Source of the DNA: Anaerovoracaceae bacterium
GTDB lineage: Bacteria > Bacillota > Clostridia > Peptostreptococcales > Anaerovoracaceae
Assembly (NCBI GenBank): GCA_045629065.1
Contig: JAZQQK010000034.1
Coordinates: 31,728 to 95,727 of the forward strand
Reading direction: 5' to 3'
DNA: 64,000 nucleotides
Positions 5,290-40,749 of this stretch are shown here, piece after piece; position 1 is the stretch's first letter, and each line of letters begins with the position of its first letter. The notes below the pieces were generated by a model. The model did no database searches and was not told where the DNA came from. It saw nothing but the letters and a program-made list of their open reading frames with translations. Both the position numbers and the translations under genes were made by a program.

Positions 5290-5959
5290 ATTTGTCGTTA
5301 AATTCACTAAGACTGGCTATGTAAAGTACACATCCCACTTGGATCTCTTAAGAGTTTTCAAGAGAACTTTTAATATCGCAGACATCAAACTCAAGTATTC
5401 GCAAGGATTTAATCCACATCCAAAGATGGGTTTTGCCCAGCCGTTATCGCTTGGCTACTCATCAAAATGCGAACTTATAGAGTTCGAAACGCGCTTAGAA
5501 TATAGCACACAAGAAGTCATGGAACGCTTGAAGGACAAGATGCCAGTAGGCGTAGAATTACTTGAGTGTTCTGTGTTAGATATAGGCAATAAATCCCTTG
5601 CAGGGGAATGTGTTTCGGCGGAATATAAGATCTATATTCCTACAGAATTAACGGAGCCCGAGCTTAAAAATCTGCTTAATGGTTATATGGCTCAAGAGCA
5701 AATTTCAGCCATGAAAAAGATGAAGAAGACCAAGGATATCCAAGAGGTTCCTATCAAGCATATGATAAGGTCTTTGAGCATTGAAAAGCTTGGCGATTTC
5801 GCACTGATTAGAGCACATTTGGACTCGGGCAGCACTTCAAATTTAAGCCCTGAACTGGTAATTCAGTCTTTCCTAAAGTTCGCAAATATCGATGTTCCAA
5901 GGTATGATTGCGAAGTAGAAAGAATAGACTTACATTTTACCAATAATTTACATTTTTAG
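5279..5959 (+). CDS. Radical-SAM-linked protein (DUF2344 / TIGR03936-like)
   Basis: N-terminus KFTKTGYVKYTSHLDLLRVFKRTF...GFNPHPKMGFAQPLSLG is typical of the family that partners with or is fused to the upstream radical SAM gene. 11-nt overlap, SD GGGAGG. Confidence 0.8.
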   Translation: MPNRFVVKFTKTGYVKYTSHLDLLRVFKRTFNIADIKLKYSQGFNPHPKMGFAQPLSLGYSSKCELIEFETRLEYSTQEVMERLKDKMPVGVELLECSVLDIGNKSLAGECVSAEYKIYIPTELTEPELKNLLNGYMAQEQISAMKKMKKTKDIQEVPIKHMIRSLSIEKLGDFALIRAHLDSGSTSNLSPELVIQSFLKFANIDVPRYDCEVERIDLHFTNNLHF

Positions 5960-38373: not shown

Positions 38374-38402
38374 ATTATAACATGAACTATTTTATAAAAC
38401 AA
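38374..38402 (-). promoter_or_regulatory. Candidate extended -10 promoter for efp
   Basis: Minus strand: TTGTTT (38397-38402), 17-nt spacer, TGTTATAAT (-10 at 38374-38379). Confidence 0.55.
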
Positions 38403-39084
38403 GAAGCTCTTTTGGTGAATGAGCCAAATTAATATAACCACAATCGGTAACTATGACGGTATCTTCTATTCTTACACCAAATCTATCAGGCAAATATATA
38501 CCTGGTTCGATTGTTACAGCCATATTTTCTCTCAAGAACTCTTCACTGCCCTTGCCTAAACGAGGAGACTCATGAACTTCGTTTCCTACACCATGACCTG
38601 TTGTGTGAATGAAGTATTCGCCGTAGCCGGCATCTGTGATAATATCTCGACAAACCGCATCTACATCTTCACATCTAACGCCAGCCTTTACAGCTTCTAA
38701 CCCAGCTAATTGCGCCTCTAAAACTGTGTCGTAGATATGAACCATCTCTTCGGTAGCATACCCAATAGCGATAGTTCGAGTCATATCGCTACATAAGCCT
38801 TGATATATACAGCCCATATCTAATGTTAAGAATTCGCCCGGCTGAATTACGTGATCTGAAGGTACTCCATGTGGTAAAGCTGAATTAGGACCTGATACAG
38901 CGATTGTTGGGAAACTTAAGCCACTCGCTCCTAGCTCCAAAAACTTGCGTTCAACTTCGGCTGCGATTTCCTTTTCAGTCATACCAATTTTTATGAAGTC
39001 GAGCATATGGTCAAATACACAATCTCCCATTGCTTCGGCTTTCGCTATTAATAATAATTCTTCTGCTGTTTTAATGTTTTCCAT
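38392..39084 (-). CDS. M24-family Xaa-Pro peptidase, catalytic 'pita-bread' domain only (N-terminal domain absent)
   Basis: HTTGHGVGNEVHESP, EPGIY and RIED metal ligands are present. At 230 aa it is well short of the ~350 aa of YqhT/PepP-type enzymes usually found upstream of efp, and the ORF begins at the domain boundary. Confidence 0.8.
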   Translation of the reverse strand: MENIKTAEELLLIAKAEAMGDCVFDHMLDFIKIGMTEKEIAAEVERKFLELGASGLSFPTIAVSGPNSALPHGVPSDHVIQPGEFLTLDMGCIYQGLCSDMTRTIAIGYATEEMVHIYDTVLEAQLAGLEAVKAGVRCEDVDAVCRDIITDAGYGEYFIHTTGHGVGNEVHESPRLGKGSEEFLRENMAVTIEPGIYLPDRFGVRIEDTVIVTDCGYINLAHSPKELLVL

Positions 39085-39085
39085 A

Positions 39086-39730
39086 TTAGTTCATTGGATT
39101 GTCTAACAAATCCTCAATATTACATCCCAAAACCACTGACATCTTATAAAGTGCCTTTGCTTGAGCTTTATCTATATCATTATTTCCTTGTTCATACATT
39201 TGTATGTTTCTGATGTTAACACCAGATTCTCTTGCGAGTTCTGATTGCGAAATTCCTCTTGCTTCTCTGATCATTTTGAGCTTTGAAACGTAAGGAAGTT
39301 CAGCAAATTCTTTTTCTAAGCATTCACAGAACTGGTCTACTGTAAGTGAATTATAGATTGGGTACATTGCAATGATATCAGTGAATTTTTTCTTTGAAAG
39401 AATATCTATGAATCTTCTACCAGTTTTCCATTGATATTCGCAAAGCATAGCTCCAGCCCAATACTCAGGCGAACGTTTACTGCTAAAAGTCTGAGGCTTA
39501 AAACTCTTTGTATGAGCAGTCTTAAGCACTTTTGTTCCTAATTCATTACCAGAAATGCCTGAAATAACTTCTACATAACCTTTTTCAAACATTTCTGCAA
39601 AGCCGGTAGCAATAAACATTTCGTAGGCTTGGTCAGCTTCGATTTGATTATCGTTGATGAGGAAGTCAAACATTTCAGCTAAGCAATCTTTTGCTTTATT
39701 CAGATAAGATTCTGGATATGCGTGTGTCAT
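39086..39730 (-). CDS. XRE-family HTH protein with a ~140-aa N-terminal helical domain (DUF3791-like?), a putative partner or antitoxin of the upstream gene
   Basis: C-terminal Cro/C1 HTH LKMIREARGISQSELARESGVNIRNIQMYEQG. The N-terminal segment ...EYWAGAMLCEYQWKTGRRFIDIL...MYPIYNSLTVDQF resembles the DUF3791 pattern. SD GAGAGGAG lies inside the upstream gene, with a 35-nt overlap. Confidence 0.7.
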   Translation of the reverse strand: MTHAYPESYLNKAKDCLAEMFDFLINDNQIEADQAYEMFIATGFAEMFEKGYVEVISGISGNELGTKVLKTAHTKSFKPQTFSSKRSPEYWAGAMLCEYQWKTGRRFIDILSKKKFTDIIAMYPIYNSLTVDQFCECLEKEFAELPYVSKLKMIREARGISQSELARESGVNIRNIQMYEQGNNDIDKAQAKALYKMSVVLGCNIEDLLDNPMN

Positions 39731-40382
39731 CGTTCTTCATCTCCTCTCTTAAAATATCAATCATGTAAATATCGTTTAAATCAAATTTCTTGCTTGAATA
39801 CTTTTCAAATTCAAGTCTTGTTTGGTTATCTCTATTGAGCTTTTTAGGATAGCAATCTTGCTTGAGACAAACTTCAGATCCCTCAAACTTAAGGCTTTCA
39901 ACAGCTTTTTTACTTGTTAAAACGAATTGTGTCTTAAGCTTACCGAATTTTAAAGCCTTATTTAATTCCTTAAGAGAAATTGAGTTTTCAAGGAATTTTT
40001 CGATAAAGTCAAAATATGAATCCTCTGCTCTATAGCTAATAACAACGTCATAGCCTTTAGTTCCGACTTCGAAATTGTCGACGATATATTTTTTTGCCGC
40101 AACGCCTATTGGACTTTTCATTGACATTTCTCTGTTTTGTAAGATTAAGGCAAGCCAGTTTAAGACAGTATACTTACCTTTCATAAGGTTTATAAGTTTT
40201 AAATCTGAAATATCAAGATCATACTTATTTAAGTATCCGTTTTTACCAAACCTAACGGCATATTCTTTTGCCAAATCTTCATCTTCAGTCATATAAAAGC
40301 CCTTACCAAAATCATTGGTTGGAATGCCGAGTTCATATTTTGGACATTCAATTATATGGTCGCTTCCATGATAAACAATCAT
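39696..40382 (-). CDS. DUF3990-like protein with PARP-like H-Y-[E/D] motifs (putative NAD+-utilising / ADP-ribosyltransferase-fold enzyme)
   Basis: 228 aa from the ATG at 40382, with SD GGGGAGG 6 nt upstream. MIVYHGS, then DFGKGFYMTE 17 aa later, then VVISYRAEDSY. The ORF-track start at 40397 is a TTG inside the SD. Confidence 0.7.
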   Translation of the reverse strand: MIVYHGSDHIIECPKYELGIPTNDFGKGFYMTEDEDLAKEYAVRFGKNGYLNKYDLDISDLKLINLMKGKYTVLNWLALILQNREMSMKSPIGVAAKKYIVDNFEVGTKGYDVVISYRAEDSYFDFIEKFLENSISLKELNKALKFGKLKTQFVLTSKKAVESLKFEGSEVCLKQDCYPKKLNRDNQTRLEFEKYSSKKFDLNDIYMIDILREEMKNDDTRISRILSE

Positions 40383-40416
40383 AATTAACCTCCCCAAATT
40401 ATTTGCGAATTGCTTA

Positions 40417-40749
40417 TTATGCTATGTTTCCAGTAACTTCTCCGAGGATTTCGTAAACATCCTTCATCATTAAACTAAATCTCATTGAAACTTGTAAAAA
40501 TTCAGCAGCTTGTGGGTCCTGCATAACAATTGAATAAAGCTTTTGAATAGATTCAGTAGTTTCTTGTGTCAATTCCTCTCCGGCCATCTGCTTTAACTGA
40601 ATTTCCATTGACTTTTCCTGGAAATCCTGAATCATTTTCTTAAGGGCTTCATTCTGATCAACGATAGCTTCAGCATTTTTCATCTGCTTATACTCTTCGC
40701 TTTCTTTAATAGCTCTTGCTAAATTGTGAGCTTCATCATATACGTTCAT
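40417..40749 (-). CDS. YlbF/YmcA (Com_YlbF, UPF0342) family protein
   Basis: 110-aa helical ORF MNVYDEAHNLARAIKESEEYKQMK... Confidence 0.7.
   Translation of the reverse strand: MNVYDEAHNLARAIKESEEYKQMKNAEAIVDQNEALKKMIQDFQEKSMEIQLKQMAGEELTQETTESIQKLYSIVMQDPQAAEFLQVSMRFSLMMKDVYEILGEVTGNIA

Follow-up and report, generated by a model that had tools for sequence, protein, structure and literature searches.

DarT–DarG is a two-gene system in which a toxin with the ADP-ribosyltransferase (ART) fold, belonging to the H-Y-E branch, ADP-ribosylates DNA and a macrodomain protein serves as the antitoxin, with roles in both toxin–antitoxin (TA) biology and defence. The RES toxins, also members of the ART clan, are NADases. 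In the RES–Xre (ParST-type) systems the antitoxin gene comes first, and its product carries the HTH at the N-terminus and the toxin-binding domain at the C-terminus. These systems combine an ART-clan toxin with an XRE-HTH antitoxin that acts twice, by neutralising the toxin and by repressing the promoter (PMC12204516, PMC10896132). Pfam's ADP-ribosyl (ART) clan includes DUF3990 as well (PMC7955679). This family is common in gut and rumen anaerobes. In T6SS Rhs effectors of Serratia and Enterobacter, DUF3990 occupies the C-terminal position of the toxin domain (PMC4524185, PMC10763514, PMC12165300); in Serratia Rhs5 and Enterobacter bugandensis RhsA, the gene behind this toxin tip presumably encodes immunity. 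In the canonical DUF3791–DUF3990 pairs, found for example on Clostridium tetani/botulinum and Bacteroides plasmids, a PF13151 effector of ~160 aa is preceded by the tightly overlapping gene of its partner DUF3791, a 60-aa core with no HTH, and a third small ORF often comes after. These pairs lie on mobile DNA and are possibly the PDC-M13 and PDC-M10 candidates of PADLOC. Finally, ART-PolyVal (PF18760) is a domain inside the giant multi-domain polyvalent proteins of phages and conjugative elements.

The window analysed here is a stretch of 64,000 nt from Anaerovoracaceae bacterium GCA_045629065.1 (contig JAZQQK010000034.1, positions 31,728–95,727, forward strand). An initial annotation of this DNA had described two minus-strand ORFs (40382→39696 and 39730→39086) with a 35-nt overlap, flanked by rnj, ylbF-like, M24 and efp genes. 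Both ORFs and their overlap are as described, and Pfam agrees on the flanks (RNase J, YlbF-family protein, M24 peptidase and EF-P). The features of the locus are as follows:

38392–39084, minus strand: short-form M24B (Xaa-Pro peptidase-like) gene, 230 aa; Pfam Peptidase_M24 at 9e-71
39082–39088, minus strand: right junction, reading TAAtATG, i.e., gene 2 TAA (39086–39088), one base and the M24 ATG (39082–39084)
39086–39730, minus strand: gene 2, 214 aa, partner protein with an XRE HTH at its C-terminus
39696–39730, minus strand: 35-nt overlap of the gene 1 3′ end and the gene 2 5′ end, read from the sequence
39696–40382, minus strand: gene 1, long-form DUF3990, 228 aa from the ATG; predicted ART-fold effector
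40383–40416, minus strand: 34-nt left-junction spacer between the ylbF stop (40417–40419) and the gene 1 ATG

The mechanical ORF for gene 1, counted from a TTG at 40397, has 233 aa. The protein matches DUF3990 (PF13151) over the whole profile (1–152 of 152) with 145.9 bits and E = 9.7e-43, against a gathering score of 32.2 bits, which bears out the DUF3990 membership proposed initially. Compared with the ~160-aa short form, to which the canonical effectors belong, it possesses an extra helical insert (~residues 85–110) and a C-terminal helical extension (~167–228). A match to ART-PolyVal (E = 2.7e-4, residues 1–60) covers the H and GxGxY motifs and, at 22.1 bits, lies below the gathering threshold of 31.2. 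The AF2 model of gene 1 (pLDDT 85.7, pTM 0.81) was compared with the PDB by Foldseek; the best 24 matches are all PARP1/2 or diphtheria-toxin-type ARTs, and these are weak (E = 7.7e-3, prob 0.94, TM ~0.3), with none under E = 1e-3. In BFVD, the model matches a viral homologue at E = 4.8e-8 and an ART-PolyVal-like phage protein at E = 2.9e-4; other PolyVal ARTs, PARP-like proteins and DarT (phage DarT weakly) rank below these. The PDB matches to Tpt1/KptA are local and weak (E > 3). Outside DUF3990, ART-PolyVal is the named relative nearest to gene 1 in both sequence and structure. The DUF3990 family profile found no relative among PDB sequences, PHROGs and NCBIfam searches with gene 1 gave no match, and a metagenome scan returned no close relatives. 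Together with the Pfam clan listing, these matches agree with the suggested ART affinity, and gene 1 is predicted to adopt an ART fold of the PARP, diphtheria-toxin or ART-PolyVal type.

The three strings on which the suggested H-Y-E motif had been based are all present in gene 1, i.e., MIVYHGS (residues 1–7), DFGKGFYMTE (24–33) and VVISYRAEDSY (113–123). The His of the HG[ST] motif and the Tyr of the GxGxY motif are both in place, with H5-G6-S7 in strand 1 (residues 2–7) and G26-K-G28-F-Y30 in strand 2 (residues 29–32), and Y54 is found on strand 3. The family-invariant residues include H5-G6-S7, D24-x-G-x-G-F-Y30-x-T32, Y54, W76, R84, D112, A119, D121 and Q152, of which H5, G6, Y30, Y54, D112 and D121 are invariant across the long and short forms in three phyla. 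However, an invariant Glu was not found anywhere in the family, long and short forms included; position 120 is E, D or N, whereas D112, which directly precedes strand 113–117, and D121 are both invariant. The His and Tyr of the proposed motif therefore hold and its Glu does not, and the alignment points to an H-Y-D-like motif in which D112 or D121 would stand in place of the usual catalytic Glu, which begins strand 5 in the H-Y-E branch.

Gene 2 ends in the Cro/C1-type HTH that the initial annotation had recognised (Pfam HTH_3, E = 2.2e-9, residues 151–208). Its AF2 model has a pLDDT of 81.3, and Foldseek matches with the full-length protein cover the HTH part only (SinR, CylR2, 434 Cro, C.AhdI, CapH and HipB), as does the NCBIfam Xre_ParS match (E = 0.041). 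The N-domain (residues ~1–146, ~145 aa) is all-helical, is without a Pfam model and forms a family of 852 clusters at 50% identity. A likeness of this region to DUF3791 had been proposed, and was rejected: no homology could be detected by Pfam or hhalign. PF12668, which matched the positive controls at 1e-18 and 7e-20, gave no match in 21 close members of the partner family (E ≤ 10) or in 43 diverse ones (E ≤ 0.01), and the hhalign comparison of the N-domain profile with a seven-sequence DUF3791 profile gave prob 0.3% and E = 0.2; two single DUF3791 proteins were negative too. The same ~33-residue stretch recurred in each of these comparisons, at prob 0.3%. A viral-contig scan with a DUF3791 protein gave no match.

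The window pair differs from each of the systems described above. Its effector carries the invariant residues (H, GxGFY, Y, D...D and Q) found in the effectors of the canonical DUF3791–DUF3990 pairs, and both kinds of pair have tightly overlapping partner genes on mobile DNA; however, the gene order is reversed, and the window partner carries an XRE HTH, whereas DUF3791 has none. The pair resembles DarT–DarG in having two genes, of which that of the toxin (here putative) comes first, and a predicted ART-fold effector, whereas gene 1 is not DUF4433/DarT by Pfam and gene 2, unlike DarG, has no macrodomain. Neutralisation by enzymatic removal of ADP-ribose is therefore impossible for gene 2, which presumably neutralises by binding and transcriptional control instead. 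Relative to RES–Xre, the pair inverts both the gene order and the domain order; Pfam finds no RES domain in it, and the presumed binding domain of gene 2 is unrelated to that of the RES–Xre antitoxin. The Rhs-borne DUF3990 domains belong to secreted inter-bacterial effectors of Proteobacteria, whereas the window protein is free-standing and cytoplasmic with an HTH-bearing partner, and it forms a two-gene module in contrast to the giant proteins that contain ART-PolyVal.

The pair was found in unrelated contexts in two phyla. The order DUF3990→partner is constant in every context examined (L001–L010, L025, L031–L036 and L041), and the overlap, usually 35 nt, is identical in L001–L010, L034–L036 and L041 and is 38 nt in L031. 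An HTH-less partner (P0361) is still paired with the same overlap, and a natural fusion of the N-domain to DUF3990 (P0454) is present in the assemblies of two independent samples. Homologues have IS1595, or a serine recombinase with MobA, among their neighbours and also occur on plasmids and virome contigs, which marks the module as mobile. In the window, the Shine–Dalgarno sequence of gene 2, GAGAGGAG (39741–39748), and its ATG fall within the conserved REEMKNDD coding stretch of gene 1, which suggests that the two genes are translationally coupled via the conserved overlap.

Relatives of the pair have a TTGACA-17-TATAAT promoter with TATCAT-N4-ATGATA palindromes in or adjoining it. Among the 41 loci examined, these 16-bp palindromes are restricted to the pair promoter, and a covarying TATCAC-N4-GTGATA version occurs twice in Collinsella. 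In the window, however, no minus-strand promoter-like site was found upstream of gene 1, and no credible promoter or terminator inside the cassette; a search of the window for TATCAY-N4-RTGATA returned neither a site near the cassette nor an enrichment. The left spacer, which includes another in-frame TAA as well as the Shine–Dalgarno sequence of gene 1, GGGGAGG (40389–40395), is too short for a promoter or operator. The autoregulation suggested initially thus fits the relatives, with their palindromic putative operators, and is not claimable for the window copy because its own promoter, operator and terminator are not recognisable.

The module is hosted by the gene string leuS-rnj-ylbF-M24-efp of this uncultured gut member of the Clostridia. 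In Ihubacter massiliensis (L018/L019), and likewise in L037 from a closer relative, the site is empty and ylbF-M24-efp lacks the pair, so that the cassette is not universal at the rnj–efp locus. At these empty sites ylbF runs into the M24 start with an overlap of 20 nt in L018 and 17 nt in L037, and the insertion in the window relative to them amounts to 1.33 kb; in L011/L012, ylbF adjoins efp. The comparison upholds the horizontal insertion into a contiguous core operon that had been proposed, and indicates that segment ~39085–40416 is a horizontally acquired two-gene module between ylbF and the short-form M24 gene and that its insertion into the core RNase J/EF-P operon is precise. The search for direct or inverted repeats flanking the insertion gave chance-level matches only, e.g., a 16-nt inverted repeat of 81% (39100–39115 / 40444–40459). 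The M24 ORF does consist of the catalytic domain only, as had been noted, and aligns to positions 126–357 of a 361-aa model. However, the implied damage by the insertion, a truncated pepP, was rejected, since the 230-aa protein belongs to a large native short-form family; the best 120 homologues are all 212–250 aa and nearly all 228–250 aa, with the Ihubacter and Anaerovorax proteins at 232 aa. By its homologues, the M24 gene is a native neighbour outside the cassette and not shortened by the insertion.

The low GC content of the cassette had also been read as consistent with horizontal transfer. The values are indeed low (32.3% in gene 1 and 35.3% in gene 2 vs. a window ORF mean of 37.4%, sd 2.7), but the dip is confined to codon positions 1 and 2. 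Since GC3 (31.6% and 29.3%, respectively) coincides with the mean for the window, 30.9% (sd 3.4), the dip reflects amino-acid composition rather than foreign synonymous usage, and compositional support for the transfer was rejected. Compared with the 81%-identical protein P0002, the window copy differs at 4 of 74 conserved columns vs. 40 of 154 variable ones (p = 1.3e-4). It retains all invariant residues, the HTH is fully conserved, and this pattern of substitution indicates that the copy is under purifying selection and still functional. The window proteins are the most divergent of their families (10/68 and 19/100 deviations from the consensus of at least 90%), which could mean altered or attenuated function.

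On balance, we lean towards an ART module with a TA-like or defence-like role that a housekeeping operon has captured, with gene 1 as the effector and gene 2 as its cognate partner. Such a reading, already offered by the initial annotation, is reasonable: the two genes stay together and overlap across many unrelated surroundings, the two parts also occur naturally fused, Rhs proteins carry DUF3990 as their C-terminal toxin domain, and gene 1 matches PADLOC candidate-defence models. For this pair we infer that catalysis depends on NAD+, that gene 1 is toxic, that the N-domain neutralises it and that the module serves in defence or addiction. With NAD+ as its substrate, gene 1 would modify an essential cellular target or deplete it, and the N-domain of gene 2 would bind and neutralise, or gate, the gene 1 product. 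In the ancestral free-standing form, the C-terminal XRE HTH would repress the module's promoter via paired TATCAY-N4-RTGATA palindromes, and the overlap may couple translation of both genes. In the window, the module would have shed its promoter and operator or arrived without them, and its transcription most likely comes from read-through of the housekeeping operon. Traits of type II TA systems are present, i.e., co-directional coupled small genes, a DNA-binding domain in one of them and a patchy distribution; however, modules of that type less typically place the toxin first or have an "antitoxin" as long as 214 aa.

A more specific reading, which we consider unlikely, is that of a dedicated anti-phage abortive infection system, in which the N-domain would sense a phage cue and release the ART to shut down the cell, the HTH setting expression only. 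Fused toxin–antitoxin defence proteins such as CapRel exist, and the fused N-domain–DUF3990 protein would be of this kind. Gene 1 matches the PADLOC candidate-defence models PDC-M42A (2.7e-35), PDC-M13B (2e-29) and PDC-M10A (1.9e-23), PDC-M13 is abundant among rumen MAGs (PMC13356809), and homologues adjoin a restriction-helicase with RmuC (L031) or type II-A CRISPR-Cas (L039). However, the PDC systems are themselves candidates, and only gene 1 of the pair matches the PDC-M42, M13 and M10 system models; gene 2 matches generic HTH models and its N-domain none, so that no defined PADLOC candidate system is called. Moreover, the window, the Collinsella pair between the housekeeping genes yihA and thrB, and the L006 pair next to a Mn catalase are not in defence islands.

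The same Collinsella location agrees with a decidedly improbable alternative, a non-toxic regulatory pair in which gene 2 acts as a transcription factor and DUF3990 adjusts a stress response by reversibly ADP-ribosylating gene 2 or another factor of the host, the window pair having been recruited to the RNase J/EF-P operon for a housekeeping-linked role. A window copy that lies in a core operon without its own promoter yet remains under purifying selection, and an HTH that is fully conserved despite no nearby operator, would also fit. Against it stand the patchy, lineage-specific distribution with empty sites in close relatives, the variable contexts with a mobile-element flavour, the occurrence of DUF3990 at the toxin tip of Rhs proteins, and the lack by Pfam of a macrodomain or ARH (ADP-ribose-removing enzyme) encoded alongside. 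It is also conceivable, though distinctly unlikely, that the effector-plus-partner logic holds with other chemistry on an ART-like fold, DUF3990 being an NAD+ glycohydrolase, an RNA 2′-phosphotransferase-like enzyme or a protein that binds NAD/ADP-ribose without catalysis. The invariant Asp instead of Glu, the weak global similarity to PARP and diphtheria toxin, the local Tpt1/KptA matches and the precedent of the RES NADases within the clan are consistent with this. However, HGS, GxGFY and the second invariant Tyr (Y54) match the nicotinamide-stacking set of H-Y-E transferases, and among named proteins the closest structural matches (ART-PolyVal, PARP and diphtheria toxin) are transferases.

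In agreement with the initial annotation, no published function for the gene 1/gene 2 pair was found in the literature searched. The analysis defines a distinct long-form DUF3990 subfamily with an obligate partner domain outside all database models, and provides handles on it: the conserved putative operator TATCAY-N4-RTGATA, the natural fusion, and H5, Y30, Y54, D112 and D121 as residues for mutagenesis. The operator, fusion and residue set make the DUF3990 family directly testable as an ART-type TA or defence module, and the family would extend the H-Y-E enzymes by an Asp-based variant. The window copy is unusual in being such a module inside a core operon without its own promoter. As a long shot, long-form DUF3990 and its N-domain partner might constitute an unrecognised, widespread NAD+-dependent effector–immunity family with an unusual H-Y-D site and, in the N-domain, a new type of domain for neutralisation or sensing, here maybe domesticated into the RNase J–YlbF–EF-P operon, so that an ART would be co-expressed with, and possibly act on, the RNA-decay or translation machinery.

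The cassette consists of two overlapping ORFs, both found exactly where the initial annotation had placed them, with the 35-nt overlap that it had described, and the peptide strings it had quoted from gene 1 are present in the translation:

40382->39696, minus strand, gene 1, a 228-aa ORF (long-form DUF3990 protein)
39730->39086, minus strand, gene 2, a 214-aa ORF (XRE-HTH partner)

Pfam likewise confirms the neighbours, namely RNase J, a YlbF/YmcA-family protein and an M24 peptidase as flanking genes (three in all), plus the operon's EF-P. The mechanical gene 1 ORF opens at TTG 40397, overlapping the SD sequence GGGGAGG, whereas ATG 40382 is the credible start, since this SD lies 6 nt upstream of it and homologues start there too. 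The SD and start codon of gene 2 sit within the conserved 'REEMKNDD' coding stretch of gene 1, suggesting that the two genes are translationally coupled.

A Pfam profile search assigned gene 1 over its full length to DUF3990 (PF13151, E=9.7e-43), in line with the earlier assignment, with a sub-threshold ART-PolyVal match in residues 1-60. Pfam's ADP-ribosyl clan already includes DUF3990 (PMC7955679); the 'PARP-motif' insight therefore rediscovers an existing classification. The AF2 model of gene 1, built with 20 homologues, is confident (pLDDT 85.7, pTM 0.81), and its 24 best PDB matches are all PARP1/2 or diphtheria-toxin-type ADP-ribosyltransferases (ARTs); however, these matches are individually weak (best E=7.7e-3, TM about 0.3). 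Searching the PDB by sequence with the family profile returned no relative. Among viral models, the matches were a homologue (4.8e-8) and an ART-PolyVal-like phage protein (2.9e-4), with more PolyVal ARTs, PARP-like proteins and DarT ranking lower.

In an alignment covering the long and short forms of DUF3990 in Bacillota, Actinomycetota and Bacteroidota, the invariant residues were H5, G6, P14, D24, G26, G28, F29, Y30, T32, A38, Y54, W76, R84, D112, A119, D121, L149, Q152 and F166. The HGS and GxGFY motifs lie on model strands 1 and 2 and correspond to the H and Y found in H-Y-E enzymes, and to this extent the proposed H-Y-E motif stands. However, its Glu does not, as position 120 (E120 here) can be E, D or N, and this alignment of both forms from three phyla contains no invariant Glu. 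From the conserved columns we infer D112, which directly precedes strand 113-117 of the model, and D121 as the acidic candidates of an H-Y-D-like site.

The predicted Cro/C1-type HTH of gene 2 is present at the C-terminus (residues 151-208, Pfam), and Foldseek matches to SinR, CylR2, 434 Cro, C.AhdI, CapH and HipB cover the HTH part only. The N-terminal ~145 residues (the N-domain) are all-helical in the model and strongly conserved. An exhaustive HMMER search with the N-domain alone returned 852 clusters at 50% identity, in which it occurs with an HTH (~212-217 aa), alone (~145-160 aa) or within longer proteins. Its supposed resemblance to DUF3791 is unsupported, because neither DUF3791 nor any other Pfam model matched the region in 21 close or 43 diverse members, and profile-profile comparison with genuine plasmid DUF3791 proteins, verified as PF12668, gave a probability of 0.3%. 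PADLOC models did not match the N-domain either.

Full-length homologues of each protein number in the hundreds (45-57% identity, mainly Clostridia MAGs), and the partner follows a long DUF3990 gene in every context examined. The identical 35-nt overlap recurs in comparison loci L001-L010, L034-L036 and L041 (38 nt in L031), and Collinsella aerofaciens (Actinomycetota) carries the same architecture between yihA and thrB. An HTH-less partner, P0361, also directly follows a long DUF3990 gene with the 35-nt overlap kept, and in P0454, assembled independently in two samples, the N-domain is fused to DUF3990; the N-domain is thus the constant partner and the HTH an add-on. P0454 (393 aa) directly adjoins a type II-A CRISPR-Cas system (Csn2, Cas2, Cas1, Cas9; L039 1243-2424, 2465-5424) and is preceded by two unannotated ORFs (139 and 174 aa). 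Just upstream of a DUF3990 cassette in two contigs (L002 316-3357, L005 276-3317) lie an RdRP protein (eukaryotic-type, PF05183; bacterial, 1013 aa) and a 280-aa protein without assigned family. In sister contigs, different ORFs (L001) or an IS1595 transposase (L004) occupy that place, so the spot is hypervariable and possibly defence-related.

In Ihubacter massiliensis (L018/L019), the order leuS-rnj-ylbF-M24(232 aa)-efp-yceG-OMT-U32 equals that of the window minus the cassette; ylbF and M24 share a 20-nt overlap there. The same empty site occurs in a metagenomic relative (L037, RNase J 76% identical; overlap 17 nt), and in two other relatives (L011, L012; 76%) both cassette and M24 are missing, leaving ylbF-efp. 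The cassette is therefore an insertion into the core string, as first proposed; it is ORF-exact, confined to this lineage and about 1.33 kb long (39085-40416). A truncation of the M24 gene by this insertion, as the initial annotation implied, is contradicted by the best 120 M24 homologues, all similarly short (212-250 aa, nearly all 228-250); the 230-aa form is native. The short-form M24B genes concerned are:

38392-39084 of the window (-), short-form M24B gene, catalytic domain only, ~230 aa
L018 5001-5699 and L037 3375-4079, short-form M24B genes between ylbF and efp

This short form constitutes a large native family (L015-L022 and L037 among the loci compared), found at the ylbF-efp position in Ihubacter and L037; in other genomes it adjoins EF-Ts and a radical-SAM gene, and it is absent at the efp locus in L011/L012. 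L012 (CAVGSW010000001.1) is labelled 'Flexilinea sp.' (Chloroflexota), and both the gene order and the sequence of its leuS-rnj-ylbF-efp region are almost the same as in the Anaerovoracaceae contig L011; the record probably represents a MAG that was mis-binned or mislabelled.

The low GC taken as a sign of horizontal transfer is real for gene 1 (0.323, second-lowest among 46 ORFs of the window). However, GC3 (0.316 for gene 1, 0.293 for gene 2) is native, matching the window mean of 0.309 +/- 0.034, and composition does not speak for recent transfer. No flanking repeats were found around the cassette. One 16-nt inverted repeat (81% complementary; 39100-39115/40444-40459), with arms in the 3' ends of gene 2 and ylbF, brackets it almost exactly and was judged to be chance, given many similar pairs in the region.

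Free-standing copies share a conserved TTGACA-17-TATAAT promoter with one or two 16-bp palindromes, TATCAT-N4-ATGATA, that bracket or overlap the -10 box; among the 41 loci compared, exact matches occur at that position only. Collinsella has a covarying TATCAC-N4-GTGATA pair, the two forms following lineage (Clostridia and Collinsella, respectively), and the Clostridia set shows hardly any variation in its HTH recognition region. Palindromes were located at L025 2935-2985, L001 5945-5987, L034 6920-6962 and L031 ~712-727. These putative operators and their position constitute strong, though indirect, evidence that the HTH mediates autorepression in the DUF3990-partner family.

Autoregulation, as initially proposed, is favoured by the palindrome-bearing promoters of relatives, but not by the window copy itself, near which no credible promoter-like, terminator-like or operator-like site was found; operator-like sites are not enriched in the window either. 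The gene 1 start follows the ylbF stop after a gap of only 34 nt, and the M24 ATG directly adjoins the gene 2 stop (TAAtATG); we infer transcription by read-through from the housekeeping operon. The only near-match to the operator consensus in the window (5752-5767, TATCAAGCATATGATA, 1 mismatch) lies far from the cassette and is consistent with chance (0.51 expected; at least one match in 41/100 shuffles). Each of the two window proteins is more divergent than any other member of its family, with the gene 2 HTH intact at consensus positions and 18 deviations in the N-domain. All invariant residues are kept, and differences from an 81%-identical relative (P0002) avoid conserved columns (p=1.3e-4); by these patterns, the copy is not decaying.

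We lean, by a modest degree, towards a TA-like or defence-like mobile module, whose ART-fold effector or toxin, gene 1, would be neutralised or gated by its partner's N-domain, with the HTH autoregulating the module in its ancestral form; among the readings considered it is the best supported. A toxic role is backed indirectly in two ways. DUF3990 forms the toxin tip in Rhs effectors of the T6SS, and gene 1 matches PADLOC's models PDC-M42A, M13 and M10, which describe putative candidate systems and none of which the partner matches. As rivals, the pair could be a dedicated abortive-infection system, or gene 1 might be a non-toxic regulatory ART or perform non-transferase chemistry, e.g., as an NADase.

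The canonical DUF3791-DUF3990 pairs differ from this module in that the partner lies upstream rather than downstream, the effector (~160 aa) lacks the insert (~85-110) and C-terminal extension (~167-228) of gene 1, and the pair often has a small third ORF after it. On Bacteroides conjugative/mobilizable plasmids, the canonical triplet of DUF3791, DUF3990 and a small ORF has a zeta-toxin family gene immediately after it (L024 2055-4115, L027 655-2001); this small ORF may belong with zeta, as an epsilon-like partner, and not to the DUF3990 system. In the literature searched, neither DUF3990 nor DUF3791 had been studied functionally. The general plan, a toxin of the ART clan paired with a cognate partner that bears an HTH, is already known from RES-Xre and, more loosely, from DarTG. 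In RES-Xre, however, the toxin family is not DUF3990, and gene and domain order are inverted. The present module also differs from the known kind in its putative toxin family, in a probable Asp in place of Glu, in a partner domain that has no database model and, for the window copy, in its capture by a core operon. The module is unsurprising in principle, yet well defined and testable.
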